A DNA stretch of 64,000 nt, from contig JAFGHO010000016.1 of assembly GCA_016930085.1 (NCBI GenBank), positions 31,340 through 95,339 on the forward strand, in the 5' to 3' direction. The position numbers and the translations under genes were made by a program. This document shows positions 40,905 to 57,342 of the stretch, piece by piece; position 1 is the first letter of the stretch, and every line of letters starts with the position of its first letter. The stretch comes from Spirochaetales bacterium (GTDB lineage Bacteria; Spirochaetota; Spirochaetia; SZUA-6; JAFGRV01). Below the pieces are notes generated by a model, which worked only from the letters and a program-made list of their open reading frames with translations, had not been told where the DNA came from and did not search any database.

Positions 40905-41642
40905 TCATCGCATTCCCGTTTTCCGGCGGTAATTCTGAAAGACATGGCCGTGTCCCGGTATGATATAGTCCGATGATTCGATAATGGCGTTCATCGCTTC
41001 CGCGCACTTTTCCTTTCCCATATTACCGGCGTTATACGGCCACGCCTCCCCCCGTTCGTAATACGATTGCGAAACGATCGCGTCCCCGGCGATACAGAAA
41101 ACCCATCCCCCGTATTCCGCGAGAAGGGAGCAATGATCCGGTGTATGTCCCGGTGTCGGCAGCAAGGTGCAGCCCGCAAAGGTATCCCCTGCTCCGCAAT
41201 AACTCGGCGGCATCATGTGCGTAAAACCGCACTTTTCGGCAAGCACCTCGAGGTTCAGCCCCTTCTCCGGCCCGGTGGTGTAAAGCCGCGCGTTCGGGAA
41301 AAACGGGAGGTTGCCGAAATGATCGTGATGCCAGTGCGTGATAAAGATGCCCGCGATACTTTCGAAAGAGAGCCGTTGAAGCGTCAGATGGTAATTCAGC
41401 ATCGCTTTGTTCAATTCCCTCGAAGCGGGCTCCAGATTCCACTCATCGGCATAGCCGGTGTCGACCAGATAATGCTTTCCCCCGAAGGTAATCCGGACGA
41501 CCGACGAGTCGCCCGATTTCAGGAACTGCTTCCGGTACTCTGTGAAATCGGGATTATAACGCTCCCCCGCTTCGATACCAAGGGTTCCCGTTTTCACGAG
41601 GGCGAGTGTCTCTATCAATTGATTTCTTTTTTTTATCTTCAT
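40905..41642 (-). CDS. MBL-fold metallo-hydrolase
   Basis: 'ITHWHHDHFGN' is the HxHxDH motif, and a downstream 'PGHTPDH' is present. Its start overlaps the stop of the upstream PHP-UvrD gene by 4 nt. Confidence 0.7.
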   Translation of the reverse strand: MKIKKRNQLIETLALVKTGTLGIEAGERYNPDFTEYRKQFLKSGDSSVVRITFGGKHYLVDTGYADEWNLEPASRELNKAMLNYHLTLQRLSFESIAGIFITHWHHDHFGNLPFFPNARLYTTGPEKGLNLEVLAEKCGFTHMMPPSYCGAGDTFAGCTLLPTPGHTPDHCSLLAEYGGWVFCIAGDAIVSQSYYERGEAWPYNAGNMGKEKCAEAMNAIIESSDYIIPGHGHVFQNYRRKTGMR

Positions 41643-44600
41643 TGCGTATAATCCTTGAACAGCAAACGCTGGCGGTAATCTTCATCGGCCGTTTTTTTTC
41701 TTGCACCCTCCGCATCACTTGTCAATCGCGCGGGGATATCCCGAAGATACCTGCTTTGTTCGTTCTCCTTCCATTTTCCGAAAACCTTGCGGCGTTTGCT
41801 CCATGAAAGATACAGCAGATCTTTCGCCCTTGTTAGGGCGACATAAAAAAGCCTTCGTTCTTCATCGGGATCGCTCGACGGACCGGTCAGGGGGGTAATT
41901 CCCTCTTCGCAGCCCGCGACAAACACAACGGGAAACTCGAGACCCTTCGAAGCGTGGAAGGTAAGCAGCCGTACCGTATCCGTTTTAAAAGGGCACCCGC
42001 TTTCGTTCGGGCCGATCATACAATAGGTGAGAAATCCTTCGAGATCGGATTGAAACCGCCCGGCCGATTCGAGAAGGGCGTCCTTTTTCATGACGATCGT
42101 CTGGTCCGTCACCGGGAAACAGGGAAATGTGTCGAAAATACACTCTAAAACTGCGGGGACCCCTTTTTCTTGAAGCAGCTTGCAAAGGTCACCGTGAAAA
42201 GCCAGCAACTCATCCGTCTTCCGCTGCTGCTTCTCCGTCAAAAGCCCGCTTTCAGCGAGTCCCCTCATCAGACACCGGTCTTCCGTCTGTTTCGCGTTTT
42301 CATCAAGAAATGGAAGCGGTTCATTTTCCGAAAACACCCCGTAAAGATGAACCAGCACATCACGCAGAGAAACGATATCATTTTCGTTCAAAAGAAGGTG
42401 GAGAAGGCTGCCCGCGCAGGAGAACGGTTTTTCCGAAAAAACCGGCCGTGCGGCCCCCCCGCTAACCGGTACGCCGGCTCCCGCCAGAAACGGTACGAGT
42501 GCTTCACCCGCCGCTTTGGTCCGTGTCAGTACGGCAATGTCGGAAAACGAATACTCGCATTTTCCCGCAAAGGCGGAATCCACGGAGGTAAAACTCATTC
42601 CGCCGACGAGTTCCTCTATCCGTGAAGCAATAAAAGCCCCTTCTTCAACCGGTTCTCCCGCCCTGAAAATCAGCACTTGTTCACCCCTGCCCCTGACCGG
42701 TACGAGTGTTTTCTTCCCCGTTGCCCCGTTTTTTCCGATAACGGAAGCCGCCGAACGGAGGATTTCCTCAGTGGAACGGTAGTGATTAATGAGTGTGATC
42801 GAAACGGGTGAATATTCCCGCCCGAGGCGGAAAAACAGCTTCACGTCGGACCCCCTGAATCCGTAAATTGCCTGATCCGGATCACCGATCGCGAAAAGAC
42901 ACCGCCTGAGTCCGTCGTCTGTTTCATGATACCGCGGAAAGAGCGTCGAAACCAGCTCATACTGTCCCGGATTGATGTCCTGAAACTCGTCGATGGCGAT
43001 AAACCTGTATCGCATCCTCAGGGATTGAAGAAGTTCGGGATCTTTTTGGAGGCAGGCGCACGTGCCCGTAATGAGCGACGAAAGGTCGAATCCGCCGTAC
43101 GCCTTGACCGCATCGAGGTAGCGTTGCGCAAGGGAACGGAGCCGTTTATCTGAGGATTCCCGCGGATTCATAAAAAGCCGCTCCATCCTGTCAGCCAGAC
43201 GAAGTACCTCCTTTTTTTTCATATCGGGATTGAGTATGCAAAGCAACTCGATCCGCCTGTATTTATCGTAGATGTTCCTGATTCGTGGGAATCTCTCCCT
43301 GATAATGTCAAGGCAAAAACCGTGAAACGTACAGACCTTGATACCGCCTGAAGACTTCCCCAGCATGACCGAGAGCCTCGATGCCAGTTCCTTTGACGCC
43401 CTGTTGGTGAAGGTGATCGCAAGAACCTGGCCCGATGAGGCCTGCCCGGTTTCGATGAGGCGTGCGATCCACGATGTGAGGGTTTTTGTCTTGCCGGTCC
43501 CAGGCCCGGCCGTAATTAGGAGCGCCCCTTCGGTCGTATTCAGAACCTCCCGCTGCTCCCGGTTGAGGGTATCCTTACTTTCGGGTTCACCGCTTCTTTC
43601 GCTTTTCCCCTTTTCCCCTTTCCGGATTCCCTTGTGCCCGGATGACCGCCGTGGAGAAAATTTTTTTCTTTCCGGAAGATTGCCGGCCTCAAAAAGGCTT
43701 TCCTGGCCGAGCAGGGCTTCGAGTTCATCGGCATCGAATACCCGTATAACACCAAACTCACCGTCGAAACCCGGCTTCGGGCGAATTCTTCCTTCCCTCA
43801 TCCGTCCGATCGCCTCTCGATAAACGGGACCGAACCTTTGTTCGATATCCGGAAGCGGAACATCGAGAAGAAAGGTGAACTCGTTTCCCCCGAATCCGAC
43901 GAGTTCGGCATAGGTCGAGAGAACCCCTTTCGAGCCCGGGCCGGTTCCCGTGATTTCGGAAACGATTTCGGGCAGGGGGATACAATATCTGAAGCCCGCG
44001 GAAGCTGCCGGCTTTATTCCCTTTTCCCTGTCAGCACATTCCAGAACACGGTGCATCACCCCCACGGTAAGCTTTCCCCCGCAGACCGGACACTCACCCG
44101 AGAGTCTCCTGGTTTCTTCCGGATCGCAGCAAATCCCGCATTTCCTGTGACCGTCGAGATGGTATTTCCCTTCTTCCGGATAAAATTCGATCGTTCCCTC
44201 GAAGCCTTCTCCGGTTTTAAGGGCCCGGAACATCGCGTCATAGGTGAGACCGGTTGAAAAAATATTTGCTTCCCGGCCGAGTTTTTGGGGCGAGTGGGCG
44301 TCCGAATTGGAAATCAGGGTATAGCGGTCGAGGGCGCTCCACCGCCAGTTCATTTCCGGATCGGATGAAAGCCCCGTCTCGAGGGCGAAAATATACCCGC
44401 TTAAATCTTCGAAACATTCCTCGATCGTATCGAACCCGCTTTTCGATCCGAAAAGAGAAAACCACGGCGTCCAGACATGGGCTGGAACGAGATACGCGTC
44501 CTCCGACGCATCGAGGACGATCTCGAGCAGGTGTTTGACGTCGAGTCCGAGGATTGGCCTTCCATCGGACGAAATATTTCCGATGGCATCGAGTTTTCTG

Positions 44601-44977
44601 TTTATCTTTTCGGCAACGGCAAAGTCCGGGGCGAAAAGCACGGAATGCACCTTTCTCGTCCGGTCGCCCTTTTTATAGATCGAACTGATTTCCGCCGAAA
44701 GGCAGAAACGGATATCGATATTCCCGCACCCGGCATCGTTGAACGGAAGATTCTCCGGGAGGTCGTCCGGCGGATCTTTCAGGATGAAAAAACCGTTCGA
44801 ATCCGGTTTCAGTTTTTCCTTGAGTTCGGAAAACCAGACGGGGTGAGTAAAATCCCCGGTCCCGATCAGATTAATGCCCTTGACCCTCGCCCACCGGTAA
44901 AACCCTTCGAGGTTCGACGCTTTGCTCGTCGCGCGTGAATGACATGAATGAACGTGAAGATCCGCTATATAATTCAT
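41639..44977 (-). CDS. PHP-domain phosphoesterase fused to UvrD/PcrA-like superfamily-1 DNA helicase
   Basis: The N-terminus 'MNYIADLHVHSCHSRATS' is a PHP His-cluster. A Cys4 cluster 'CGICCDPE...CPVCGG' follows. The UvrD Walker A is 'ITAGPGTGKTKT', with 'AITFTNRASKEL', 'DEFQDINPGQYEL' (motif II) and C-terminal helicase motifs. Confidence 0.7.
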   Translation of the reverse strand: MNYIADLHVHSCHSRATSKASNLEGFYRWARVKGINLIGTGDFTHPVWFSELKEKLKPDSNGFFILKDPPDDLPENLPFNDAGCGNIDIRFCLSAEISSIYKKGDRTRKVHSVLFAPDFAVAEKINRKLDAIGNISSDGRPILGLDVKHLLEIVLDASEDAYLVPAHVWTPWFSLFGSKSGFDTIEECFEDLSGYIFALETGLSSDPEMNWRWSALDRYTLISNSDAHSPQKLGREANIFSTGLTYDAMFRALKTGEGFEGTIEFYPEEGKYHLDGHRKCGICCDPEETRRLSGECPVCGGKLTVGVMHRVLECADREKGIKPAASAGFRYCIPLPEIVSEITGTGPGSKGVLSTYAELVGFGGNEFTFLLDVPLPDIEQRFGPVYREAIGRMREGRIRPKPGFDGEFGVIRVFDADELEALLGQESLFEAGNLPERKKFSPRRSSGHKGIRKGEKGKSERSGEPESKDTLNREQREVLNTTEGALLITAGPGTGKTKTLTSWIARLIETGQASSGQVLAITFTNRASKELASRLSVMLGKSSGGIKVCTFHGFCLDIIRERFPRIRNIYDKYRRIELLCILNPDMKKKEVLRLADRMERLFMNPRESSDKRLRSLAQRYLDAVKAYGGFDLSSLITGTCACLQKDPELLQSLRMRYRFIAIDEFQDINPGQYELVSTLFPRYHETDDGLRRCLFAIGDPDQAIYGFRGSDVKLFFRLGREYSPVSITLINHYRSTEEILRSAASVIGKNGATGKKTLVPVRGRGEQVLIFRAGEPVEEGAFIASRIEELVGGMSFTSVDSAFAGKCEYSFSDIAVLTRTKAAGEALVPFLAGAGVPVSGGAARPVFSEKPFSCAGSLLHLLLNENDIVSLRDVLVHLYGVFSENEPLPFLDENAKQTEDRCLMRGLAESGLLTEKQQRKTDELLAFHGDLCKLLQEKGVPAVLECIFDTFPCFPVTDQTIVMKKDALLESAGRFQSDLEGFLTYCMIGPNESGCPFKTDTVRLLTFHASKGLEFPVVFVAGCEEGITPLTGPSSDPDEERRLFYVALTRAKDLLYLSWSKRRKVFGKWKENEQSRYLRDIPARLTSDAEGARKKTADEDYRQRLLFKDYTQ

Positions 44978-45258
44978 CCCCGCCAGATTAACAGATTCGG
45001 GGGTGATTGTACAGGGACTTTTTTTCCTGTTTCGCCGGGAGTGTATCCCCGCATCGAACGGCGGATTGACGATATCGCCGGCCCTTAGCGGCTTTGCTTC
45101 GTTACACGTTGAAGCCGCGCGTTCATGGCGTGTTTCTCCATGATTGTGCGGAAAACCGCCTGTGTTACTGCGTCTTTTCGTATTGTTTTAACGAAAAAAA
45201 AATTATAAATGTCATTTTTTTGTTTTTTTTTTATTGACTCTTTTGGAATTGTATTTTA

Positions 45259-45274
45259 CGATTTGCGCAAATCG
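45259..45274. promoter_or_regulatory. Perfect 16-bp palindrome CGATTTGCGCAAATCG in the promoter region of the precursor operon
   Basis: It lies about 110 bp upstream of the precursor ATG, between a TTGACT -35-like hexamer (45234) and the RBS. An extra CAAATCG half-site follows. Confidence 0.3.
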
Positions 45275-45382
45275 TAATGATTTACACAAATCGCAAGCGC
45301 CCGGCGATGCCGTTTTTATTCATTTGGATGACATTACCTATGCTCGTTGAGCATTGACATTTTTACGAAAGGAGGAAACCTT

Positions 45383-45529
45383 ATGTACGAATCTCCATCA
45401 ATTGAAATGCTGGGTGATTCCCAGATGAACAACGTAATGGGAGCCTTTGTTTGGGCAATAGGTCCTGTTTTTGTTGCAGTAGCAGCCGTTGTATTACTCA
45501 TTTTGTCAGTAATTGATATCACTCCGTAA
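45383..45529 (+). CDS. RiPP/bacteriocin precursor peptide (48 aa): double-glycine-type leader with a Cys-free hydrophobic core
   Basis: An AGGAGG RBS lies 7 nt upstream. The leader is MYESPSIEMLGDSQMNNVMGA and the core is FVWAIGPVFVAVAAVVLLILSVIDITP. Leader positions L-12, M-7, V-4 and G-2/A-1 fit the GG-leader consensus. Confidence 0.6.
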   Translation: MYESPSIEMLGDSQMNNVMGAFVWAIGPVFVAVAAVVLLILSVIDITP

Positions 45530-45552
45530 CTGATTATCAATTAACTGAGCCA

Positions 45553-45587
45553 CGGTCGGAATTGAGATATTATCTCTTTTCCGACCG
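45553..45587 (+). terminator. Partial terminator/attenuator hairpin between the precursor and the maturase genes
   Basis: A 9-bp stem cggtcggaa...ttccgaccg has a ~17-nt loop and is followed by a weak T-rich tract. Confidence 0.4.
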
Positions 45588-45665
45588 ATTTACATTTGTA
45601 AAAGCTCATTATCGTATAATAAAATACTGATGAAATTATAATACAAATCAGGAAAGGAGTCAACT

Positions 45666-46712
45666 ATGGCGGAATTGCAATTGCCGGTGAATACATCGAT
45701 ACAGATCAAGCATGCAGAAATCGTAAAAGGGCCCACACAAATCGCTTTCGATATCACGAACAAATGCAATTTTAGGTGCCTTCACTGTTTTAATCGAAGC
45801 AGCGAGAACGACCGGATGAACGATGAATTAACCGACAAACAGGTAAAATATTTTATAAAAGATATAATCAAAATGAAACCGTTTAATATCTGTCTGTGCG
45901 GGGGAGAACCCCTGATCAGGTTTCATTTGATATGCGACATCTCCTCGATGCTCAAGGAGAACGACATCATGGTTTCCATGGTGACGAACGGATACCTGCT
46001 GACGGAGGAAAAGGCGGAAAAATTGTTCGCTTCCGGCGTACGCCGCGTCCAGGTAAGCCTCGATGGGGCCTGTCCGGAAACCCATGAGCGATTGAGAGTG
46101 AAAAAGGGAAGTTTTAATAAAGCGATCGAGGCGATAAAAATATTCAAGACTGCGGGATTCGACGATGTCGGTGTGGCGTTCACCCCGACCAATTTCAATT
46201 GTCACGAGGCAAGCGATGTGATCGCTTTATGCCGGAACCTCGGTGTCAGGGATTTCAGGGTACAGCCATTGATGTGTATCGGCCGGGCGAAGACGAACAT
46301 GGGAAATATACTTCCTTCGAATTACCAATACCGCAACCTCGTCAAGACACTCAATGAATCAAAGACCGAATATACAGACATTAAGATCGAATGGGGCGAT
46401 CCGATCGACCATTTGATTCGCTTCCGTACCGTCACACAACACCTGAACGTCTTTCTCGTCGTTCAGGCGAACGGAGATATAGCGGCTTCCCCGTATTTGC
46501 CGATAACGATCGGCAATATTAAAAAACACTCGATTCTGAAATACTGGAAAAAGGGATTGCCGAAAGTCTGGCAGTTCGAACCGATAAAAAAAATAGCGAA
46601 TAACATCAAATGCATGTCCGATTTCTCCAAAGAACACAAGGATTTGCCGATTGTTTGGTTCGATCAGAATATTCGATACGATGTTATCGACGACAAACTT
46701 ATCAGTTCATAA
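45666..46712 (+). CDS. Radical SAM peptide-modifying enzyme (partial SPASM/twitch-like C-terminal region)
   Basis: The radical SAM motifs are 'FDITNKCNFRCLHCF' (CxxxCxxC) and 'CLCGGEPL'. 'SLDGACPETHERL' is also present. The C-terminus has only scattered Cys (NFNCHE, IALCRN, LMCIG, IKCMS), so no full seven-Cys SPASM. Confidence 0.8.
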   Translation: MAELQLPVNTSIQIKHAEIVKGPTQIAFDITNKCNFRCLHCFNRSSENDRMNDELTDKQVKYFIKDIIKMKPFNICLCGGEPLIRFHLICDISSMLKENDIMVSMVTNGYLLTEEKAEKLFASGVRRVQVSLDGACPETHERLRVKKGSFNKAIEAIKIFKTAGFDDVGVAFTPTNFNCHEASDVIALCRNLGVRDFRVQPLMCIGRAKTNMGNILPSNYQYRNLVKTLNESKTEYTDIKIEWGDPIDHLIRFRTVTQHLNVFLVVQANGDIAASPYLPITIGNIKKHSILKYWKKGLPKVWQFEPIKKIANNIKCMSDFSKEHKDLPIVWFDQNIRYDVIDDKLISS

Positions 46713-46744
46713 TATTTTAGTTATAATAAAATGGAGATGTAATC

Positions 46745-47653
46745 ATGAAAAAAGGAACACCGCACTTTAAAAGTGAAAATCTGCTTTACATGAGGGAGGA
46801 AAACAAAGGTTGTGTCACACTGTTATCCAAATTCCACCCCGAACTGAGAGAATTGGTGATAAACAAAACAACGAAAGAAATCATCGATTTATGCGACGGT
46901 CAAAACACGATCGAAGACATCATTTCAAAAATGAAAGCGAAATATCCGATGGTCCAGTCGGCCATCATTACAAATGACGTACACAAAATTCTCGCTAGTA
47001 CCTCCAGATTGATGTTGATTCAATGGGAACACGAGAACCCGTACCTTTTTCTGAGAGAAGAAATCATAGACGATACGTACGGATTGAGAATCGGCGTCGA
47101 AGACGATTTGTTGAAGATAAAGAAATTTATTATGGACAGCGATATTCTTACAAATGGGAACGACGTTTCTTCCTCGCATTTTTATTATAAAAATGTTTAT
47201 GTCAACACATATGAATACGACGAAGTTTTATTGCGGCAGAAAATATTCAATTTTAACGAGGAGTTCTTCTTTTTAACAAAAAACGGGGAAATAGAAGGAT
47301 TATTATCCTTTCAGCTGCCCATTCCCCCGTCAAAGGCCGCCGTATTGAAGATGTGCATTTGTGCAAAAGAATATTTCAGGGAATTGTTTCGCTATGCATC
47401 GGACAATCTCCCGCACATATCCGTTTCGCAGCTTTCGAAAATTAAATTTATTATCAGTTCGAAGGAGCCTGTTGACGACTCCCTGGTTGAATTGCTAATA
47501 TCTGAAGGATTCGGGGACGAGGGATTGTTCAGGGACGAACTGGGTTTTGATCATGATATTTCCGTCATGGGCTTGAGCTACGATCCCGTCCTTATCGATG
47601 AGATCGAAAAAAACAGGAAAGCGGCTACCGCTATCGGCGGACTGGCGCAGTAG
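46745..47653 (+). CDS. PqqD-like RiPP recognition element (RRE) fused to a ~200-aa domain of unknown function
   Basis: The N-terminal block 'VTLLSKFHPELRELVINKTTKEIIDLCDGQNTIEDIISKMKAKYP...ITNDVHKIL' matches the PqqD/RRE consensus ('ln.ta..iw.l.dG..t..ei...l...y......DV..fl'). Confidence 0.5.
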   Translation: MKKGTPHFKSENLLYMREENKGCVTLLSKFHPELRELVINKTTKEIIDLCDGQNTIEDIISKMKAKYPMVQSAIITNDVHKILASTSRLMLIQWEHENPYLFLREEIIDDTYGLRIGVEDDLLKIKKFIMDSDILTNGNDVSSSHFYYKNVYVNTYEYDEVLLRQKIFNFNEEFFFLTKNGEIEGLLSFQLPIPPSKAAVLKMCICAKEYFRELFRYASDNLPHISVSQLSKIKFIISSKEPVDDSLVELLISEGFGDEGLFRDELGFDHDISVMGLSYDPVLIDEIEKNRKAATAIGGLAQ

Positions 47654-47721
47654 AAACGGGACCGGCGCACAATCGGACGGATTTACCGAAATATCACAAG
47701 GGGAGTGACAGGAATCGAACC

Positions 47722-48486
47722 ATGTATCGACGTTATATGTTAAACGTATCGTTTTTCGTTTTGAGTTTCTTTTTCTCGCATTGTTTCATTTTCGCGGAAC
47801 CGGCCCTGGGGAAAATCGTTTCGGATATAAAAAACAGTAAAAAGGAAATGAGCGGCAAAATCGCCGATATAACGATCATACAGGAAAGCGAAATATATTC
47901 GGAGAAGGGAACGATGCACCTCCGGTCGACGATTTACAAAAAGTCAGATAAATTCCGGGTCGAGAATTCCTGTGAGTTCGCCGGCGCAATTACCGAAGAA
48001 ACAATCATCTATGACGGCCGCGATTACTGGAAAATAGGAAGCGGCCTGAAACAGAAAATAAACAGGGACGAAATGCTGGAGAAGAACAAAACGATTGCCT
48101 TGCAGAAAAACTGGTGGGAAATAATTTCGGAGGAATCACGGCTTGAACAAGCCGACGATGAGGTAACGAACTGCTATATCATCCTGAGTGATAACAACAA
48201 TGAAACATATCGGTGCTGGGTTAACAGGGACAATCTGCTTCTCGAAAAAATCGAAATCATGTTTTCCGAAGACGACAGCATCATTATCGTCTACGGCGGT
48301 TTTGAATCAGTTGTCGACGGGCACGAAATGGCGACGAAAATCGAGCTGTACAGAAACGGTATATTGGACTCGAGAATTTCAATCAAAAAGATCGACATAA
48401 ATACCGGCGTCTCCGACGAGTTATTCGATCCGGACAGGGAAAAAAGTTTCGACCTGAATCGTATATTAAAGGATCTTTTTCAATAA
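47722..48486 (+). CDS. Secreted protein, LolA-like / unknown function
   Basis: A signal peptide 'MYRRYMLNVSFFVLSFFFSHCFIFA' is present. The length and composition suggest a beta-rich lipoprotein-carrier-like fold. The fold assignment is weak. Confidence 0.35.
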   Translation: MYRRYMLNVSFFVLSFFFSHCFIFAEPALGKIVSDIKNSKKEMSGKIADITIIQESEIYSEKGTMHLRSTIYKKSDKFRVENSCEFAGAITEETIIYDGRDYWKIGSGLKQKINRDEMLEKNKTIALQKNWWEIISEESRLEQADDEVTNCYIILSDNNNETYRCWVNRDNLLLEKIEIMFSEDDSIIIVYGGFESVVDGHEMATKIELYRNGILDSRISIKKIDINTGVSDELFDPDREKSFDLNRILKDLFQ

Positions 48487-48563
48487 ATCGGTATAGCGAA
48501 TACCCGAACAATAAACCATTGTTTATATGATCGATAAAAAATTACAATCAGAGAGGATGTTAT

Positions 48564-49055
48564 ATGAGATTATCCAGAATAATCGGATTCCTGAACAGGA
48601 GAAAGGAAAATGAAATGACGGGGGCCGGATTTATCGCCGGAACCGTCCTGGGAATTATCATCGGGCTGTATATCTTTCTTTCGGTACTTATTCTGAAAGA
48701 GGTCACATTAAACCAGCTCGAACTCTCACTCAAGCCGTACGAACGGCTTATCAGCATGGACCCGGTTACCATTTATTATATTACCCTCATCGCGACCCCG
48801 CTTATCGTGGTCTTCATTCATATGATAATCGGTGTGGTGATCGGGATCGGTGTCAATAAACTGAAAAAACCGTCCGCCTGGAAGATCTTGCTCGGCGGGG
48901 CCGCTCTGGGGACGCTTTTCGGCTTTATCACGAGTGCCCCGGCCCCGAGGATTGTTACGTTTATAGTCTGTTTGGCGGCGTGGATTGTTTTTTCCCTTGT
49001 TTTTCTCCTGACCGTTCGTTTATCGAACAGGGAACCGGAGGATAAAACGGCCTGA
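48564..49055 (+). CDS. Small 4-TM membrane protein (candidate immunity protein)
   Basis: Four hydrophobic helices are present. The RBS is 'gagagga'. No catalytic motifs were found. Confidence 0.4.
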   Translation: MRLSRIIGFLNRRKENEMTGAGFIAGTVLGIIIGLYIFLSVLILKEVTLNQLELSLKPYERLISMDPVTIYYITLIATPLIVVFIHMIIGVVIGIGVNKLKKPSAWKILLGGAALGTLFGFITSAPAPRIVTFIVCLAAWIVFSLVFLLTVRLSNREPEDKTA

Positions 49056-49172
49056 TGCCCTGAAGGGAAAAGACAGAGAGATAATGAAAAGCGGCGGGGC
49101 GTATTTCCCGGCGACACCCGAGTCGATTGCGGTCTCCGCGGAAATGCGGATGGAAATATAACTCATGGAAAA

Positions 49173-50948
49173 ATGGAAGAACCGATGAATAAAACTATAC
49201 TGGCGTATAAGGATTTAAAACGGTTACTCGGAATTTTTACGACCTATATTAAAGGGAAAAAGGGGTTATTGTTCCTCGGCGTATTTCTGGGGATAATAAG
49301 CCGGTTATGTGCGTTATCCATCCCCTTGTTTTCGAAATTTATTATCGACACCGTCATCTTCAAAGGTTTTGACAGTTACCTCAACATAACGATACTCTCC
49401 GGGATCGTCATTCTCATTCTTCTTGCGGGGTCATCGATTCTGTCGAATTATCTTCTCTTTAAGGTAAACGGTCTGGGCGGGATCAAGTTCAAGTATTCTT
49501 TTTTCAGAAAACTGCAATATGCGCCATTTACCTTTTTTACCACTATTCAAAAAGGCGCGATCGCCCACAGAATATTGACGGACACCGAACGGATTATCGG
49601 TTTCTGGACGCAGACCGTCGCGACATTGCCGCTGATCGTTATCCTGGGCGCGGGCGGGGCGATAATGCTTCATTACAATCCCGTTCTCTCCTACTTTATC
49701 TTTAGTATTATTTTGCTTCAAATCCTTATCATCGTCGTCTTCAAGGGCCCGATCATGCGGTCCTCATTTTCAATCAAGGAAAACATGGAAAAGCTCACTT
49801 CCTATACCGTGGAGTTTTTTACAAAAATAGAACTGGTGAGAACCCATTCCACCGAAAAAAGCGAACAAAAGAAATTTCTGGGTTCAGTACGGAAATTGTT
49901 CCGGGCGGCATTCAGAAACTTCATGCTCAACAAGGGATATAACAACATCATCGCCTTTCTTTCCTATCTGTGGATCTTCGTCGTGCTCTGGTACGGCGGC
50001 ACACAGATACTGGCGGGTAACATGACAATAGGGACGCTTTCCGCGTTTTTACTCCTTGTCAATATCCTCAACACTCCCATTTTCATGCTGACCGAACTGG
50101 TCCTTTCATTTCAACAAATACGAACCAGCCTTTACCGGTACGAGGAATTCGCAAGGGTCGGAAGATATCTGCCGCCACCTTCCGGCGGCAGGCCCCTGAA
50201 ACCATACAAACCCCAGGAAGGCAGGATCGAATTGAAAGGCGTATCGTTCGGCTACAATGACCATTACGTTCTCAGAAACATCAATGAAGTCATCGAACCG
50301 AATTCCATAACTGCCCTGGTCGGCAGGACCGGCGCAGGTAAATCCACCTTTTGCCGGCTACTGATTAGACTGTTCGATCCGCAATCGGGCTCCATCTATC
50401 TGGACAACAGGGACATCAGGGAAATCAAAATACCTTCTTTAAGAAAATCGATTCATCTCTCTCTGCAGAACAACCATGTGATGAACGGCACACTCTGGGA
50501 AAATCTGACATACGGTACCGGTCATGTCGATAAAAAGGATGTCCTTCTGGCAATGAAAAAAGCGGGAATCGATTTTCATTATAAAATGCCGGCCGGATTC
50601 GACACGTTGATCGGTGTTCACGGATTGAATCTGTCAGGCGGGGAATGCCAGCGGATCGCCATAGCGAGGGCATTGCTTTTAAATCCGAAGGTTTTCATAT
50701 TCGACGAAACGACGGCATATATCGACAACAGGACGGAAGAAAAGATCAAGGATGTATTATGCGAATTGAAACGATCGGGCACCGTTATTCTCATCACGCA
50801 CCGCAGCTCGACGCTGGATGTCGTCGATAATGTCCTGTTATTCGATAATGGAACGATAACGGAATCCGCACCCTCGCATGTTCTGAAACGGGACAGGGGA
50901 AGCGAGTTTTTTAAATCTTTTTATTCAAAAGGAGGCACCCCGGAATGA
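49173..50948 (+). CDS. ABC transporter, fused permease/ATPase (peptide/bacteriocin exporter type; no fused C39)
   Basis: Six N-terminal TM helices precede Walker A 'GRTGAGKST', the signature 'LSGGECQRIAIARAL' and Walker B 'IFIFDETTAYID'. Confidence 0.85.
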   Translation: MEEPMNKTILAYKDLKRLLGIFTTYIKGKKGLLFLGVFLGIISRLCALSIPLFSKFIIDTVIFKGFDSYLNITILSGIVILILLAGSSILSNYLLFKVNGLGGIKFKYSFFRKLQYAPFTFFTTIQKGAIAHRILTDTERIIGFWTQTVATLPLIVILGAGGAIMLHYNPVLSYFIFSIILLQILIIVVFKGPIMRSSFSIKENMEKLTSYTVEFFTKIELVRTHSTEKSEQKKFLGSVRKLFRAAFRNFMLNKGYNNIIAFLSYLWIFVVLWYGGTQILAGNMTIGTLSAFLLLVNILNTPIFMLTELVLSFQQIRTSLYRYEEFARVGRYLPPPSGGRPLKPYKPQEGRIELKGVSFGYNDHYVLRNINEVIEPNSITALVGRTGAGKSTFCRLLIRLFDPQSGSIYLDNRDIREIKIPSLRKSIHLSLQNNHVMNGTLWENLTYGTGHVDKKDVLLAMKKAGIDFHYKMPAGFDTLIGVHGLNLSGGECQRIAIARALLLNPKVFIFDETTAYIDNRTEEKIKDVLCELKRSGTVILITHRSSTLDVVDNVLLFDNGTITESAPSHVLKRDRGSEFFKSFYSKGGTPE

Positions 50949-51595
50949 GATATGGGCCGTATCGGCGTCTTGCGTGCTCCCTCCTTTTTCTTGCCGTCAC
51001 ACTCAATGCCGCCTCGGGCGGCCAGACCGTCGTCACACCGTATTACCGGCTGAAGTTCGAATCGATGGACCGGCAGATATCCGAGTATGCGTGCGGCATC
51101 GCCGTGTTGACGACGTTATTCAATCATTACTTCGAGATAAACCTTTCACAACAAGAAGTCATCGATCGATATGTCGCACAAATTATGGAAGAAAGGCGAG
51201 GAATTAGTTTTTTAGACTTAAAAAAAATCGCCGCCGACCGGGGATTTACCGCAAAGGGATTTAAAATCAACCTCGCCGCCCTGCTGGAATTTTTGAAAGT
51301 CAATACCGTGCCGCTTATCATTCATCTGAATGTCAGGTACGGCGCGGAGAAGGTCGGTCACTTCTGCCTGTTGCTTGGTGAAACGGACGGTTATTTCATT
51401 ATCCAGGACCCGGCATACGGCAATTGCGTTTATACGAAAAGCCAGTTGCTCGATAAATGGAGCGGCAATATCCTCGTTATCGTTCCGCCGGAAAACGACA
51501 AGACGACCGTTGAACGCAGCCGGGAGAATATGGAAAAAGTCATCGAACGGGGAATAGAACGAATACAAAGGATGTTATATTATGAATCATACTAA
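50945..51595 (+). CDS. Standalone C39-like cysteine peptidase (double-glycine leader peptidase type)
   Basis: A signal/anchor is present. The catalytic Cys lies in 'SEYACGIAVLTTLFNHY'. The His is in 'VGHFCLLLG' and the Asp in 'IIQDPAYG'. It overlaps the ABC stop by 4 nt. Confidence 0.6.
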   Translation: MRYGPYRRLACSLLFLAVTLNAASGGQTVVTPYYRLKFESMDRQISEYACGIAVLTTLFNHYFEINLSQQEVIDRYVAQIMEERRGISFLDLKKIAADRGFTAKGFKINLAALLEFLKVNTVPLIIHLNVRYGAEKVGHFCLLLGETDGYFIIQDPAYGNCVYTKSQLLDKWSGNILVIVPPENDKTTVERSRENMEKVIERGIERIQRMLYYESY

Positions 51596-52493
51596 AAACC
51601 CTCTCTTCATCATACTTTGCGCGTCTATTTCGCTCTGTACCGCAAACGATATACACGCGCAATCGGAGAATTCATTATTCAAATTCGGTCTGGAAAAAGC
51701 TTTGGTCCTTTCGGATTCGCTCCATTACAGAAGCGCGACGTCAACGGATGTACAGGAACGGACGATCACAAACACGTTTCAGGCGGGCTATTTCTTTACC
51801 GATGCCTTGTCTCTGTTTCTTACCGTTCCTTTTTCATGCGCTATCTATTCGATTAAAAACATCAATAAAGAAGCAGCCTATGAAACCCAGGCGTTCCTTC
51901 GACTTGAAAACAGCAGCGCGGCCCTTCATTATAAACTCGATTTTTCCCGTATGACCCTCAAAGTCATAGCGGGCCTTGAAATTCCGTCGATGGCCGCCGT
52001 CTGTGACTATTCATCGATCGACAATCCGGGCGACGTTCTCATATCATTCGATTCCGAGTATTCCGATGCCGCACTCGATGATCTCAGAATGTTGACATTG
52101 CTTGCCGGTGAGACATGCTGTTTCACCATAGACCCCGTCATATTGTTCGTATCCCTGAATATTTCATACCCCCTTTGGCGGGAGAAGGATACCGAAGCCA
52201 TCTACACGACGTTCAAGAGCCAGTTGATTCAATCATTGTATTTCATCGTCAACGACTCGATCAGTCTTTTTTACGATATCGGCATCATGCTATACAAGGG
52301 AGAAAATGCCGCCATGATTGAAACCTATGTTGTAAACGGCGGATGCAATATATTGATCTCCCCGACGACGGAAATCGGATTAAATGTAATGACCGCTTTC
52401 AGCGGAAACACGGCCTTCCCGGGTCTCGGCGTCACGCTGACAAAAATAATCAAGGCGGAAGGAAGCGACGCCGGTATTCCTGAAAGCCGTTAA
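51582..52493 (+). CDS. Secreted hypothetical protein
   Basis: A signal peptide 'MNHTKNPLFIILCASISLCTANDIHA' is present. It overlaps the upstream gene by 14 nt. Beta-rich, no motifs. Confidence 0.35.
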   Translation: MNHTKNPLFIILCASISLCTANDIHAQSENSLFKFGLEKALVLSDSLHYRSATSTDVQERTITNTFQAGYFFTDALSLFLTVPFSCAIYSIKNINKEAAYETQAFLRLENSSAALHYKLDFSRMTLKVIAGLEIPSMAAVCDYSSIDNPGDVLISFDSEYSDAALDDLRMLTLLAGETCCFTIDPVILFVSLNISYPLWREKDTEAIYTTFKSQLIQSLYFIVNDSISLFYDIGIMLYKGENAAMIETYVVNGGCNILISPTTEIGLNVMTAFSGNTAFPGLGVTLTKIIKAEGSDAGIPESR

Positions 52494-52556
52494 CCGTCCG
52501 AAGTCCAGGCCGGCGGCGGACGGCCGTTTCCGGAACCGGTTGTCGTGAGAGGGAGT

Positions 52557-53411
52557 ATGAATAAAAAAATCATCCTCTATATTCTCGTCAATTGCATACT
52601 CATCGGAATAGTGGCGGCCGTTTCCGTTATCCTCCATACCGAAATCCGTTATTTCGCGGCGCTTTATATGTTTTTCCCGTTCATTGCGACACTCGTCGCC
52701 GCCGTAAAATACCGGATACCGGCAGCCGACCTGGGATTGAAAATAAGCATCGGTCCGTGGTACGCGGCGGCGTGGATACTCCCCTTTTTTCTCGCCGTTC
52801 TCTCGATCCTCATCAGTCTGATGATGGGACCCGGCATGTCGTTTTCCCCCGGCATGGAAGGACTCGAACGTTTCGGCATCGCCCCCGATGCATTGCCGTC
52901 AAACGGGGGGCTTTCCGTTTGCGGTTGGATCGGCCGTATTTTCCTTGCGTTTGCCGGGGGAATCACCGTCAACGCGATATTCGCGCTCGGAGAGGAAATC
53001 GGATGGAGGGGGCTTCTCTACAAGGAATTGCGCGGCCTCGGTTTCTGGAAATCGTCGCTTGCCGCGGGACTCCTCTGGGGCGTCTGGCACGCGCCGGTCA
53101 TTCTTTCCGGCTACAATTACCCGAACCACCCCGAAATCGGTGTTTTCATGATGACCGCATTCTGCATTCTGCTTTCCCCCCTCATGCAGTTCTTGCGGGA
53201 AAAAACGGGTTCCGTCATACCCCCCGCCGTTTTTCACGGCACTATCAACGCCTTTGCGGGATATACCGTCATATTGATCAAAGGCGGAAACGACTTGCTG
53301 ACCGGCATGACCGGACTGAGCGGGATGATCGTTTTCCTGCTTATGGACGGCCTTTTGTTCGTTTATATGCGGACAGGGAAAGCGGATGGAGAGGGCAACC
53401 GGGAAGTTTGA
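52557..53411 (+). CDS. CPBP-family (CAAX/Abi) intramembrane metalloprotease, bacteriocin-immunity-like
   Basis: Multiple TM helices are present. Motif 1 is 'FALGEEIGWRGLLY' (EExxxR), with 'FWKSSLAAGLLWGVWH' and 'VFHGTINAF' (His motif). Confidence 0.7.
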   Translation: MNKKIILYILVNCILIGIVAAVSVILHTEIRYFAALYMFFPFIATLVAAVKYRIPAADLGLKISIGPWYAAAWILPFFLAVLSILISLMMGPGMSFSPGMEGLERFGIAPDALPSNGGLSVCGWIGRIFLAFAGGITVNAIFALGEEIGWRGLLYKELRGLGFWKSSLAAGLLWGVWHAPVILSGYNYPNHPEIGVFMMTAFCILLSPLMQFLREKTGSVIPPAVFHGTINAFAGYTVILIKGGNDLLTGMTGLSGMIVFLLMDGLLFVYMRTGKADGEGNREV

Positions 53412-53794
53412 TTTATAGAGAAACATATTTTCGGGCGAGGACAACTCTTCGCAGGAGTTACGGAAAAACAAGGGAAATAAAGAATAATAGATTATAAAAT
53501 CGGAAACAGCCATTTTTCAGAATATCTTGCTGATATGCCTTGTATCATTGCTGTACAAAACAGGGTAGATTAATTGCCTGATCTCCATTGTATATTGAAG
53601 CTGAAAAACAAACAAATCATTATATCAAAAGGAGATCAAGAATGTAAAAAAATATCACGATAATAATGCAATTTTGACAGCCTATTTAGCCATGCGAACC
53701 TATAAAGTCGAAAAGAATGCGAAAGGTTTTTCTTCATGGAAACGGTTTATTGAGATGGTTTTAGGTCAGATTCAATATCTTAAAGGTAAGCGGC

Positions 53795-53832
53795 CTTACA
53801 AACCGCCTCCAAAGGAGGCGGTTTGCTTTTGT
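53795..53832 (+). terminator. Strong GC hairpin terminator in the intergenic region after the RiPP operon
   Basis: An 11-12-bp stem caaaccgcctcc-aaa-ggaggcggtttg is followed by CTTTTGTT. Confidence 0.55.
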
Positions 53833-53883
53833 TAATCGACAGCGCTTTCGGGGGAGATTATTCCCATGAATAAGGTCTCCCTA

Positions 53884-54327
53884 TTACAGAAGCACCACAC
53901 CCGGAAAAATCAGATGGATAACCGCGACCGACATACCGGTTATCCCTATCAGTACATGGTACTTCTTGATGGTCGATCTTATTTTTCCGGTATCTTGTTT
54001 AACAATCTCCCCTTCCACTTCTTTATCCTTTTTTGTAAACACGGCGAGCAGCAGGCTTCCGCCTATTGCACAACCCGTCAGTGCGGGGAGCAGGTCTTCC
54101 AGAATAAAAATCCCTCCCGGTTTGATAAACACGAAAAACTGAAGAATCCCGACAGCCAGTGCCGTGATCCCTAATACGGTTTGTATACCCTTGTTGACCA
54201 AAATTCTCCTTATCGGATTAAGCAGCTTAATATCGGTTTCTATATTTCTGAACATGAGAGCCAATCCCCCCAGGAATAGCGTTAGAATGGAAATAAAATA
54301 TAATTGCAGCATGTTTGACTCCTCCAC
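53884..54327 (-). CDS. Hypothetical 4-TM membrane protein
   Basis: Hydrophobic helices throughout. No motifs. Confidence 0.4.
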   Translation of the reverse strand: MEESNMLQLYFISILTLFLGGLALMFRNIETDIKLLNPIRRILVNKGIQTVLGITALAVGILQFFVFIKPGGIFILEDLLPALTGCAIGGSLLLAVFTKKDKEVEGEIVKQDTGKIRSTIKKYHVLIGITGMSVAVIHLIFPGVVLL

Positions 54328-54538
54328 TTTATATTAAAATACCTATTTGTTATGGCTATATACCGTATTCTTATTTTTTAATAGTTATAATGACACATAT
54401 CCTCTTTTTACTGCTTTTTTTCACTTCTGCGGCTCCACGGGATTTTGCCGCCCGTTCTCTTTTTATATTGATTTTTTTATCCGGAATCAATAATCCGCTT
54501 GTCTAAAAATTATCCAGGGTGTAATATGATACGCTGTC

Positions 54539-55249
54539 ATGCCGTATAGTATTTTAATTGTGGATGATGATAAAGATTTCAGAGTCGAGTTCCGTGATAT
54601 ACTGGAAGAAGAATATGATGTATATGAAGCAGCAAGCGGAGAAAAGGCTATTGAAATCATAAAAAAACCGAATATTGTCGATCTCGCCATTCTGGATGTT
54701 AAAATGCCGGGAATACAGGGAACAGAGGTTTTAAAACAATTAAAGCAACTGGTACCGGACTTGATAATCATAATTGTTACCGGTTATGGTTCAAAGGATG
54801 TCATAATTGAATCCTTAAGAAGGCATGCCGATGATTTTCTGGAAAAACCTTTGAAAATAGAAACGGCGCTGCAAAGAATCAAACAGCTTTTATACAACAA
54901 ACAATGTGAAGTAAAAGGCGTCATTGAAAAATTAAAGCATTTTATCGAAAAAAATTTTCACAAGAAAATAAGTCTAAAGGATGCTTCAAACGTTGTCTGT
55001 TTGAGTCCCAAATATATCTCAAAAATATTTAAAGACGAGGTCGGGATTGGATTCAATGAATATAAACTCAGGTTAAAAATGGAGAGGGCAAAAGAATTAC
55101 TGGGTTTGCATACGTACAATATCAATGAGATTGCCGGTAAAATAGGATATCTGAATATCGAATCCTTTGCAAGGATATTTAAACACCTGACAGGTGTTAC
55201 TCCCTCTGAATATAGACAGCTTTTATTTCATGGAGAAAAACATGAATAA
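54539..55249 (+). CDS. Response regulator with AraC-type HTH output
   Basis: The receiver is 'ILIVDDDKDFRVEF...LAILDVKMPGIQG'. The C-terminal AraC HTH is 'LKDASNVVCLSPKYISKIFKDEVG ... IAGKIGYLNIESFARIFKHLTGVTPSEYR'. Confidence 0.8.
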   Translation: MPYSILIVDDDKDFRVEFRDILEEEYDVYEAASGEKAIEIIKKPNIVDLAILDVKMPGIQGTEVLKQLKQLVPDLIIIIVTGYGSKDVIIESLRRHADDFLEKPLKIETALQRIKQLLYNKQCEVKGVIEKLKHFIEKNFHKKISLKDASNVVCLSPKYISKIFKDEVGIGFNEYKLRLKMERAKELLGLHTYNINEIAGKIGYLNIESFARIFKHLTGVTPSEYRQLLFHGEKHE

Positions 55250-56840
55250 ATTGTTAAAAACCATATTTAGTAAAAACCGGTATCATCCCGACGAATGTGA
55301 TGTGATATTCAATGCTTTTACCGATCCCGTCATTGTCTATAATGCTTTAGGATGTATTATAAAAGCAAACAAGGCAGCAGAAGATTTTTTACAATTCAAT
55401 CCGATAGGATTACATACCATCGGACTTGCCGAAATTCCCGCATCCGGTTTATCGACCGGGAAACCGGATGCGGTCGAGACTCTTTTATCAAAGGCTTTAA
55501 AAGGAGAAATCGGCAAAGATGTATCGTGTCAATTTACGGATAAAAACGGAAATAAAAGGTTTTGCAGCTGTTCAGCCGCGCCAATCCTCGATCGTACCGT
55601 TGTAGCCGGAATTATCCTTGTTTGGCATGACATTACAGAAATAACAGAAAAAGAAAAACAATTGGAAATAAACAATAAAAAGCTGGAAAACCTGGTTAGC
55701 GAAATAAATGAAAAGCAAAAAGTATCGGATAAACAGATAATAAACGATAAGAAAGAAATTGATACAAAAGATTCACAGATAATGGTTTCAAATAAACTGC
55801 TGGAAATAATATTTTCCAATACTCACTTTCTGATTGCTTACTTATCCACGGACTTTACTTTTATCCAGGTGAATGATGCTTATGCAAGGGCATTTAATCG
55901 GTCGCCTGATTTTTTTGCGGGAAAAAATCATTTTGATTTATTTCCCAACGAAGAAAACAAGGCTGTCTTCTCTCACGTTGTAAAATCGGGAGTTTCCTAT
56001 ATAACATATGTAAAGCCGTTTTTTCATCCCGACAAATCGGAATCCGATGCTACCTATTGGGATTGGAGTCTTCAGCCTATAAAAAACAATAATAAAGTTG
56101 AAGGAATCATTTTAGTCCTCATCGATGTGACCAGAAGGAAAAAAGCGGAAGAAGATTTATTTAATGCAAAAAGATTATCGGATATCGGAACACTGGCGGC
56201 GACGGTGGCCCATGAACTCCGCAATCCCCTTGCGGTCATTCAGGCAGCTATTTATAATATCAAGAGAAAAAGTCGGAATAGCGATATTGAGAAACATATA
56301 GAAAATATCAACGCAAAAGTCGAAGAGAGTGAACAGATTATCAATAATCTGCTTGGTTATTCGAAGTTTAAAATTCCTCAAAAGACGGACGTTTCAATTT
56401 ATAATTTTTTAAATGATCTGTTTGATGACATCCAGGGCAAAATGACTAAAGACACTATTATCATCAACAGAAAATACGAATCCCTAAAAGATACGATTAT
56501 TCATATCGATCCCGTCCAAATTCGTGAAGTACTCAATAATATAGTGAATAATGCATATCAAGCCATACCGCAGGTTAACGGCCGTATTGAAATTCAGGGG
56601 AATCTCTCAGGTAACAATCGATTGAATTTATACATTACGGATAACGGAAACGGAATAGAAAATGAAGATTTGGAAAAAATATTTAATCCCTTTTTTACAA
56701 ATAAGTCCAAGGGCACGGGATTGGGGCTAACCATCTGTAAAGAGTTGATCAAACTGCATAATGGAAATATAGAAATACTTAGTCAAAAGGGAGAGGGCAC
56801 TATTGTGAGGATTTCCCTTCCTCTAAACGTGATACCATGA
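55242..56840 (+). CDS. Cytoplasmic PAS-domain sensor histidine kinase
   Basis: Two PAS-like regions and a coiled-coil precede the H-box 'ATVAHELRNPLAVI'. The N/G boxes are 'NNIVNNAYQAI' and 'DNGNGIE...GTGLGLTICKELI'. The start MNKLLKT follows a GGAGAAAAAC RBS and overlaps the upstream RR's last codons. Confidence 0.8.
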   Translation: MNKLLKTIFSKNRYHPDECDVIFNAFTDPVIVYNALGCIIKANKAAEDFLQFNPIGLHTIGLAEIPASGLSTGKPDAVETLLSKALKGEIGKDVSCQFTDKNGNKRFCSCSAAPILDRTVVAGIILVWHDITEITEKEKQLEINNKKLENLVSEINEKQKVSDKQIINDKKEIDTKDSQIMVSNKLLEIIFSNTHFLIAYLSTDFTFIQVNDAYARAFNRSPDFFAGKNHFDLFPNEENKAVFSHVVKSGVSYITYVKPFFHPDKSESDATYWDWSLQPIKNNNKVEGIILVLIDVTRRKKAEEDLFNAKRLSDIGTLAATVAHELRNPLAVIQAAIYNIKRKSRNSDIEKHIENINAKVEESEQIINNLLGYSKFKIPQKTDVSIYNFLNDLFDDIQGKMTKDTIIINRKYESLKDTIIHIDPVQIREVLNNIVNNAYQAIPQVNGRIEIQGNLSGNNRLNLYITDNGNGIENEDLEKIFNPFFTNKSKGTGLGLTICKELIKLHNGNIEILSQKGEGTIVRISLPLNVIP

Positions 56841-57217
56841 AAAAGCGCATACTGATAATCGACGACGATATTCAGCTTTGTGAAGAATTTCAGGATATTT
56901 TAGTAGCTGAAGGGTTTTGTGTAAACATAGTTCACAACGGACTTTCCGGGAAGAAAATCCTGGAAAATGAAGTATTTGATATACTCCTTTTGGATATAAA
57001 AATTCCCGGTTTATCTGGTTTTGAAATTCTGAAATGGCTAAAGGATAATCATTATCAGTTGAGAATAATTATATTAACGGGAAGGCCTTTGTACAGGGCA
57101 GGGTATATAACGGATAAGAACGACGTGGAAGAAATATTGCTGGATTATGCCGATGAAGTCATCAACAAACCATCAACCATTGAAAATATAATAAATAAAA
57201 TCAAACACTATCAATAA
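56837..57217 (+). CDS. Single-domain response regulator receiver
   Basis: 'ILIIDDDIQLCEEF...ILLLDIKIPGLSG'. It overlaps the kinase stop by 4 nt. Confidence 0.7.
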   Translation: MKKRILIIDDDIQLCEEFQDILVAEGFCVNIVHNGLSGKKILENEVFDILLLDIKIPGLSGFEILKWLKDNHYQLRIIILTGRPLYRAGYITDKNDVEEILLDYADEVINKPSTIENIINKIKHYQ

Positions 57218-57342
57218 AAGCCGGCGCGGCCATTGTCAAAGGTAATAGAAAAACGGAAAACAGACAGAAGAAACAGGAAACACCTGATGTTAATTGACCG
57301 TAATTCGTCTAGAATTGGAACGTTCCCAATAAATGGAGGGTC

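Follow-up and report, generated by a model that had tools for sequence, protein, structure and literature searches.

A PqqD-like protein fused to a degenerate GNAT-fold domain in a putative radical SAM peptide operon of a Spirochaetales bacterium

Introduction

Recognition elements (RREs) for peptides that are made by the ribosome and modified post-translationally (RiPPs) bind the leaders of precursor peptides and are a common handle by which ribosomal peptide pathways are found and engineered. In PqqD/PqqE, a separate RRE protein, carrying a domain of the family PF05402, hands the precursor to a radical S-adenosylmethionine (SAM) enzyme. MftB/MftC and the systems of the GeoRSP PqqD-family chaperone, ScmD and WgkC are likewise composed of two components, a chaperone and a radical SAM maturase. 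These chaperones are about 100 amino acids long and have no second domain, and their maturases keep the SPASM clusters. Discrete PqqD-type RREs are also present in lasso peptide systems as the B1/E proteins (TbiB1; PDB 5V1U/5V1V), and the leaders of lasso peptides carry YxxPxL as a conserved recognition motif (PMC10368454). New RRE fusions to glycosyltransferases and to glutathione S-transferases were described with RRE-Finder, and no fusion to a Gcn5-related N-acetyltransferase (GNAT) or other acetyltransferase is mentioned there (PMC7470986). The protein described here (the "target") has 302 amino acids and combines a PqqD-like RRE with a degenerate GNAT-fold domain. Its gene is situated in a stretch of 64,000 nucleotides from a Spirochaetales bacterium (contig JAFGHO010000016.1). 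The whole of this stretch is called the window, and its first letter is position 1 of all coordinates given for it.

The target gene belongs to a row of nine co-directional genes (45383..53411, Table 1). An initial annotation of the window had placed it in a radical SAM RiPP-like cluster beside a named precursor peptide, and the content of the operon agrees with this. The target is probably, although by no means certainly, the leader-binding chaperone subunit of a radical SAM maturase made up of two proteins, in which the pseudo-GNAT domain would be non-catalytic. This reading is based on profile comparisons, a predicted structure, conserved gene neighborhoods and a motif common to the precursor leaders.

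Structure of the target protein

The start codon of the target is preceded by a GGAG sequence 10 nucleotides upstream. Full-length homologues with 37-46% identity begin at the same residue, and a protein identical to the target is held by NCBI.

Residues 39-85 match the Pfam PqqD family (PF05402) at an E value of 1e-5, scoring 26.2 bits where the gathering cut-off is 23.4. The same family is matched by 127 of the 132 full-length members in the alignment from which the conservation figures for the target family were taken, the best match having an E value of 7.5e-12. Comparison of the family profile with solved structures identified PqqD (5sxy) with an E value of 2.4e-4; the match to the lasso RRE TbiB1 (5v1u) is weak and not significant (E 0.32). 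The model of PqqD from pyrroloquinoline quinone (PQQ) biosynthesis, TIGR03859, is matched by 120 of the 132 members, and further matches were found to the GeoRSP, ScmD, lasso and WgkC chaperone models. By these profile matches the target belongs to the PqqD/RRE domain family. It is not a bona fide PqqD of PQQ biosynthesis: its score against TIGR03859 is 32.6 bits, under the equivalog cut-off of 46, its matches to the NCBIfam PqqD models are all below their equivalog cut-offs, and there are no pqq genes in the operon.

A structure of the target was predicted with AlphaFold2 (AF2) using the alignment of 132 sequences. The predicted local distance difference test (pLDDT) score is 93.6 and the predicted template modeling (pTM) score is 0.78. 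The confidence required this alignment, as a prediction made with only three sequences had a pLDDT of 48.7 and was unusable. The N-terminal part of the model consists of strands at residues 5-8, 13-18, 24-28 and 37-39, followed by helices at residues 41-48, 56-66 and 72-88, with a pLDDT of 86-98 across residues 1-100. All three of these helices, together with the strands from residue 13 onward, are taken to be the RRE core (residues 13-88), which has a winged-helix-like fold. The initial annotation had assigned the first ~95 residues to the PqqD/RRE fold and had proposed a fold prediction as a check; both the Pfam matches and the model bear the assignment out. R17 and E19 of the N-terminal domain are invariant in the alignment, and P6, N40, G52, I59, D78, W94, P99, R164 and E265 are conserved in at least 90% of the members.

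The C-terminal part is harder to recognize. Residues ~100-302, searched as a single sequence, have no match in Pfam, NCBIfam or the PDB sequences, and a profile built from three sequences of this domain gave only chance matches to MvaT and thioredoxin-like proteins. Matches of two relatives to DUF3533 were below threshold and were dismissed. In contrast, the profile of the 132 members matches solved GNAT structures over residues 110-269, the best match being SpeG (E 1.4e-7), followed by MccE, RimJ-like proteins and others. The model has C-terminal strands at residues 112-116, 172-179, 182-190, 198-207, 232-238, 257-262 and 272-278 and helices at residues 119-132, 160-168, 208-225 and 245-253. 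Their succession follows the GNAT topology, beta1-alpha1-alpha2-beta2-beta3-beta4-alpha3-beta5-alpha4-beta6-beta7. This was further supported by a Foldseek search of the PDB, which returned GNATs only, with SpeG first (6e-9) and then ArsN, PaiA, RimL and RimJ. The C-terminal half of the target is, as judged by profile and model, a GNAT acyltransferase fold. The short region following it is poorly conserved and is missing from many members of the family. The initial annotation had found no recognizable motif beyond the RRE and had recommended a fold search. Its statement holds for single-sequence searches and is superseded by the family profile and the fold. It had also considered an acyltransferase-like or a methyltransferase-like fold; the former was right at the level of the fold, and the latter is discarded, as all structural matches are GNATs.

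Loss of the cofactor site

In GNATs, the backbone amides of a loop with the motif Q/RxxGxG/A hold the pyrophosphate of coenzyme A (CoA). None of the 132 members has this motif in the beta4-alpha3 region, and glycine occurs in 5% or fewer of them at each of positions 207-215. When the family was aligned to SpeG of V. cholerae with hhalign (probability 89%, E 2e-6), a four-residue gap in the family was found to lie exactly opposite the Q-G-K-G of SpeG. The deleted pyrophosphate loop would be situated near residues 207-213 (47363..47383), where strand beta4 (198-207) of the model continues directly into helix alpha3 (208-225). The column of the general-acid tyrosine of SpeG, situated in alpha4 (LYEECGF), is occupied by L251 in the target. 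Across the family this column contains leucine (64%), phenylalanine (14%) or isoleucine (11%), and tyrosine in 0.8%. Columns 238-246, which follow beta5 and where contacts with the pantetheine are expected, are not conserved.

Judged from these alignments, the acyl-CoA-binding loop and the catalytic tyrosine have been lost from the domain, and the motifs of a competent GNAT are absent. Without the pyrophosphate loop and the catalytic tyrosine, the GNAT-like domain is most likely non-catalytic. The idea of the initial annotation, that a second tailoring activity is delivered to the leader-bound substrate, is unlikely for the same reasons.

The family is large. A profile search of 1.84 billion representatives found 571 homologues with E values of 1e-3 or less, 254 of them at 1e-10 or less; nearly all are 270-300 amino acids long and match from end to end. 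A word-index search returned only 3 matches and thus badly under-reports the family. The fusion of an RRE to a GNAT-like domain is represented by more than 250 clusters at 50% identity, and its named sources are Spirochaetales, candidate division WOR-3, Caldisericum and gut Holdemanella, with one Holdemanella sequence present on 473 contigs. No description of the RRE-pseudo-GNAT family was found in full-text searches of the literature. The family offers a clean genome-mining marker for a set of uncharacterized peptides that are hydrophobic and probably act on membranes.

The radical SAM enzyme and the precursor peptides

The radical SAM enzyme encoded upstream of the target gene has its CxxxCxxC motif beginning at residue 34, and there is therefore no room in it for an RRE. 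Its closest solved structures are SkfB, CteB and PqqE, all in the core only, and in NCBIfam it has sub-threshold matches to the GeoRSP, mycofactocin, Scm and Wgk maturases. The SPASM domain is matched with 12.9 bits, under the cut-off of 21.5. The SPASM-like tail (NGDI..SPYLP..GNI..H...YW) lacks the cluster-binding cysteines, and the only invariant cysteines in six orthologues are C34, C38, C41 and C76.

Related loci are numbered with the prefix L, and part of them come from a metagenome scan with 13 close members of the family as queries. Wherever the contig reaches far enough, a radical SAM gene is immediately adjacent to the gene of the target family, both in the window and in L003-L005, L007-L016, L018, L019 and L021. 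It is situated upstream in diderm-type loci and downstream in Firmicute loci, and in many loci the two genes are translationally coupled or overlap. This adjacency, the absence of an RRE from the enzyme itself and an in-frame fusion of the two proteins in one locus support a partnership between the target and the radical SAM enzyme.

The fusion is a 574-residue open reading frame (ORF) on a sediment contig (L023, 6044..7768), in which the radical SAM protein continues into the PqqD-GNAT-like protein. Missing from it are ~25 residues at the end of the radical SAM protein and ~27 at the beginning of the RRE, among them the otherwise invariant R17 and E19. The fusion could be natural, but a pseudogene formed by deletion or an artefact of assembly would look alike. 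A different variation was observed in L004 (1230..4399), L021 and L022, which have two paralogous radical SAM genes and/or two different precursors for each PqqD-GNAT-like gene.

The precursor peptide of the window has Y2-E-S-P5-S-I7 in its leader, in the pattern YxxPxI, and a hydrophobic, membrane-helix-like core containing neither cysteine nor lysine. Its orthologues in L013 and L018 occupy the corresponding place in the operon and have 73% and 68% identity, respectively. In these two loci the precursor (68-73%) is more conserved than the operon enzymes (21-65%). Fifteen precursors from related loci have an N-terminal Y-[EQ]-x-P-x-[IVL]-x-x-x-G in common, in which the tyrosine and the proline are invariant and the residue five positions after the tyrosine is isoleucine, valine or leucine in every case. 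This common YxxPx[ILV] motif gives indirect support to the putative binding of the leader by the PqqD domain. All 15 precursors also have a long membrane-helix-like segment rich in valine, alanine, leucine and isoleucine, and none contains a cysteine. Beyond this the cores diverge widely between clades and share no common nucleophile.

In the clade of the window the sequence V-M-G-A followed by [F/Y]-x-W is conserved. The glycine and alanine at positions -2/-1 and the hydrophobic residues at -4, -7, -12 and -15 fit the consensus of double-glycine leaders. Cleavage after G20-A21 by the C39 peptidase is plausible on this pattern, and so is the leader end ...VMGA that had been proposed initially, given that a C39 peptidase is encoded in the operon.

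As the enzyme has no auxiliary-cluster cysteines and the substrates are free of cysteine, thioether formation is unlikely, and the readings as a canonical SPASM maturase or a sactipeptide system were rejected on the same grounds. Epimerization, or a C-C or C-O crosslink near conserved aromatic and acidic residues, are only guesses at the chemistry. The reaction of a cysteine-less SPASM-remnant enzyme on cysteine-free cores could reveal a new modification.

An inverted repeat with a long loop, GGTCGGAA...TTCCGACC, is situated after the stop codon of the precursor and before the radical SAM gene (45553..45590). Possibly it acts as an attenuator and thereby controls the ratio of precursor to enzyme. 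The repeat was not called by the consensus terminator scan, and the promoter and terminator scan gave counts no different from the range seen in shuffled controls.

Table 1. Positions of the precursor, target and accompanying genes in the window
Feature	Position	Strand	Evidence
Precursor peptide, 48 amino acids, MYESPSIEMLGDSQMNNVMGA / FVWAIGPVFVAVAAVVLLILSVIDITP	45383..45529	+	ORF and AGGAGG ribosome-binding site
Radical SAM peptide maturase, 348 amino acids	45666..46712	+	CxxxCxxC (C34/C38/C41); Pfam Radical_SAM 97 bits
Target gene	46745..47653	+	302 amino acids, ATG start
PqqD-like RRE domain, target residues 1-99	46745..47041	+	beta-strands followed by three helices; Pfam, profile, AF2
Degenerate GNAT-fold domain of SpeG/RimJ type, residues ~112-279	47078..47581	+	profile, AF2, Foldseek
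C-terminal helix (residues 281-297), low-confidence tail, stop codon	47582..47653	+	AF2 model
Secreted LolA-like protein, 254 amino acids, signal peptide	47722..48486	+	Pfam LolA_like 16.6 bits, weak, below cut-off
Membrane protein, 163 amino acids	48564..49055	+	no family match; same position in L013 (38%) and L018 (41%)
ABC (ATP-binding cassette) exporter, fused permease and ATPase, 591 amino acids, without a C39 domain of its own	49173..50948	+	Pfam ABC_membrane, ABC_tran
Stand-alone C39 peptidase, 216 amino acids, signal-like N-terminus	50945..51595	+	Pfam Peptidase_C39 70.7 bits
303-residue protein, signal peptide	51582..52493	+	faint FilC match, E 0.036
CPBP (Rce1-like) intramembrane protease family protein, 288 amino acids	52545..53411	+	Pfam Rce1-like 56.1 bits

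Proposed function

In the proposed mechanism, the RRE (residues 1-99) would bind the leader through Y2-x-x-P5-x-I7 and hand the peptide over to the neighboring radical SAM enzyme, in which there is no RRE. The GNAT-like domain (residues ~112-279), probably a descendant of SpeG/RimJ-type acetyltransferases, may have one or both of two roles. The radical SAM enzyme could dock on it, and it could be a holdase, in which the former acyl/substrate cleft would shield the membrane-helix-like core until the peptide has been modified and exported. The hydrophobic cores and the presence of immunity genes of the membrane-toxin type also speak for the proposed mechanism. The ABC exporter would move the peptide out, and the secreted C39 peptidase would cut it after G20-A21. 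The LolA-like protein and the 303-residue envelope protein would handle the hydrophobic product, and the CPBP and 163-residue membrane proteins may give immunity. The target would then exemplify an acetyltransferase fold recruited after the loss of its cofactor site.

Some properties of the family weigh against a non-catalytic domain. The polar residues E119, D121, R164, E172, K232, E259 and E265 of the GNAT-like domain are strongly conserved, and instead of an interface they could make up an active site of a non-canonical kind. Among enzymes with a GNAT fold, some, such as aminoacyl-tRNA transferases, do not need the canonical motif or do not use CoA. The domain tethered in an RRE fusion is usually catalytic, and because of this an active enzyme is the default expectation. 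The conserved polar residues and this habit of RRE fusions keep alive the main rival explanation, in which the C-terminal domain is an active acyltransferase that tailors the precursor and binds acyl-CoA, acyl carrier protein or aminoacyl-tRNA in a non-canonical manner. The fold is a true GNAT fold with sequence homology to SpeG, MccE and RimJ-like enzymes, four members of the family match PseH and three match Acetyltransf_4, and among the conserved residues E119, D121, R164, E172 and E265 could be catalytic. GNAT tailoring enzymes are moreover known in RiPP pathways, for example the lasso acetyltransferases. Nevertheless, such an enzyme seems unlikely. The pyrophosphate loop is gone in all 132 members, the general-acid tyrosine is absent and the columns of the expected pantetheine contacts are not conserved. 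An acceptor is also difficult to find: the core in the window has no lysine, the leader still covers its N-terminus as long as the peptide is in the cell, and the cores of different clades differ widely and have no nucleophile in common.

The loss of the cofactor site with retention of the fold would also be compatible with a C-terminal domain that is mainly an oligomerization module, gathering RREs and radical SAM enzymes without touching the substrate. SpeG-type GNATs form dodecamers, and the closest solved relatives of the domain are these oligomeric SpeG enzymes. However, the two-domain monomer has a high pTM (0.78), which suggests that the domains are held in a fixed arrangement within the molecule, and an oligomeric scaffold overlaps with the chaperone rather than excluding it; as the main role of the domain it is improbable. 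Least probable of all, and hardly to be expected, is a role outside peptide maturation, in which the target would be a DNA-binding regulator of the winged-helix type, or another adaptor, with the pseudo-GNAT domain as its sensor. RREs and winged-helix regulators have the same fold, false positives of this kind are known from RRE-Finder (PMC7470986), and a few members of the family give stray matches to transcription-regulator models. Against a regulator stand the best matches, which are to peptide-chaperone models, the co-occurring precursors with an invariant RRE-type leader motif, and the relation to the radical SAM gene: the adjacency is strict, it involves the same radical SAM subfamily in several phyla and in differing gene orders, and in many loci it is accompanied by overlap or translational coupling.

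Organization of the operon and related loci

The nine genes of the operon are present in the same order on the metagenome contigs L013 (5339..12970) and L018 (2500..9889). The identities range from 21-27% for the LolA-like and 303-residue proteins to 65% for the radical SAM enzyme. The gene for the LolA-like protein, a candidate periplasmic carrier of the hydrophobic product, keeps its place after the target gene in L001, L002, L003, L013 and L018. The 163-residue membrane protein may have a role in immunity or export. NCBIfam matches of the ABC exporter to the HlyB and NHLP types are below cut-off, and the exporter is conserved in L013, L015, L016, L018 and L023. The C39 peptidase is conserved in L003, L013 and L018, and in these three loci its gene is also followed by that for the 303-residue protein (21-26% identity). 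The CPBP gene closes the operon in L013 and L018, as it does in the window, and its product is likely to have a role in immunity or in processing.

FapD/FilB and FilC are parts of amyloid and putative pilus secretion systems. The C39 peptidase of the window matches FilB with 68.7 bits and FapD with 64.5 bits, both below the NCBIfam cut-offs. The signal-like N-terminus of this peptidase and the 303-residue protein with a signal peptide, together with their weak matches to FapD, FilB and FilC, suggest that the leader is removed outside the cytoplasm and that there is a dedicated outer-membrane step, of which the 303-residue protein is a possible component.

It is conceivable, although rather doubtful, that the associated peptides form a new RiPP class. 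Such a class would comprise membrane-helix-like peptides with a lasso-type leader and a radical SAM enzyme free of auxiliary clusters, and in it the GNAT fold would have been re-used as a dedicated holdase of the hydrophobic core or as a catalyst that needs no cofactor and installs a new modification. Its export in diderms would depend on the ABC exporter, a periplasmic C39 peptidase, a LolA-like carrier and an outer-membrane protein, comparable to FapD/FapF and Fil. The family would be of greater interest if this were true.

In loci from gut Firmicutes (L007, L008, L009, L011 and L012) the genes encode, in this order, an ABC protein, the PqqD-GNAT-like protein, the radical SAM enzyme and a peptide of 63-64 amino acids. 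After them come, except in L012, a regulator with an ArsR/SdpR-like helix-turn-helix (HTH) and then, in all five, an SdpI-family immunity protein. L007 and L008 are situated beside integrase, relaxase-accessory and TraG-type/conjugation genes. One Holdemanella variant is present on hundreds of contigs, where it is located on mobile elements beside genes for SdpI-type immunity.

In L003, L014 and L015 the radical SAM/chaperone module has as its neighbor a gene for a membrane protein that contains a bacterial PH domain (bPH_5 in L003). No gene for such a protein is present in the operon of the window.

At 38-44 kb and at 58-64 kb the G+C content of the window is 53-57%. It drops to 43-48% across the operon and to 35-37% between 54 and 58 kb, where there are genes for a response regulator containing an AraC-type HTH (54539..55249) and for a PAS histidine kinase (55194..56840). 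The drop in G+C (44000..58000) suggests an acquired island, possibly with its own regulators. On the other side of the operon, the complementary strand encodes a protein of 1112 amino acids (41639..44977), a UvrD/REP helicase with an N-terminal extension of ~470 residues that is PHP-like by eye. It is followed by a metallo-beta-lactamase-fold protein (40905..41642), and both appear to be unrelated to the target.

Comparison with known systems

Among the described systems, PqqD/PqqE shares with the target the PF05402 domain and the separation of the RRE from the radical SAM enzyme, and the partner of the target is related to PqqE and SkfB in the core. The target differs in its low score against the PqqD equivalog model (32.6 bits, cut-off 46), in the absence of pqqA, B, C and E genes, in the addition of a GNAT-like domain of ~200 amino acids and in a partner without the SPASM cysteines. 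Its substrate is a hydrophobic peptide of 48 amino acids with a different leader.

The lasso B1/E proteins resemble the target in being discrete RREs, and the lasso PqqD model is matched by fourteen members of the target family. The leaders of the precursors have the YxxPx(L/I/V) pattern in common with lasso leaders (PMC10368454), with a glycine ~9-10 residues after the tyrosine. The differences are the radical SAM partner, the GNAT-like addition and the weak match to TbiB1 (E 0.32). A lasso peptide cluster was rejected, as there is no lasso cyclase (the Asn-synthetase-like C protein) or B2 peptidase in the operon of the window or in the related loci.

With SpeG, RimJ, RimL and MccE, the C-terminal domain has 13-22% identity; it differs from these GNATs in the deletion of Q/RxxGxG/A, the replacement of the tyrosine and the fusion to an RRE.

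MftB/MftC and the GeoRSP, ScmD and WgkC systems share with the target the division into chaperone and radical SAM maturase. Sub-threshold matches to chaperone models of this group were found in 20, 14 and 4 members of the family, and all the scores are far below the family cut-offs. The second domain of the target and the loss of the SPASM cysteines from its partner set it apart from all of them.

In its proposed working the target is like PqqD/PqqE, MftB/MftC and the lasso B1 proteins, and it is neither a bona fide PqqD nor a lasso component. The initial annotation had called the presence of a discrete RRE beside the radical SAM enzyme notable. This division of labor between two proteins is already known, and what is unusual is not the separateness of the RRE. 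The unusual feature is the pseudo-GNAT domain to which it is fused.

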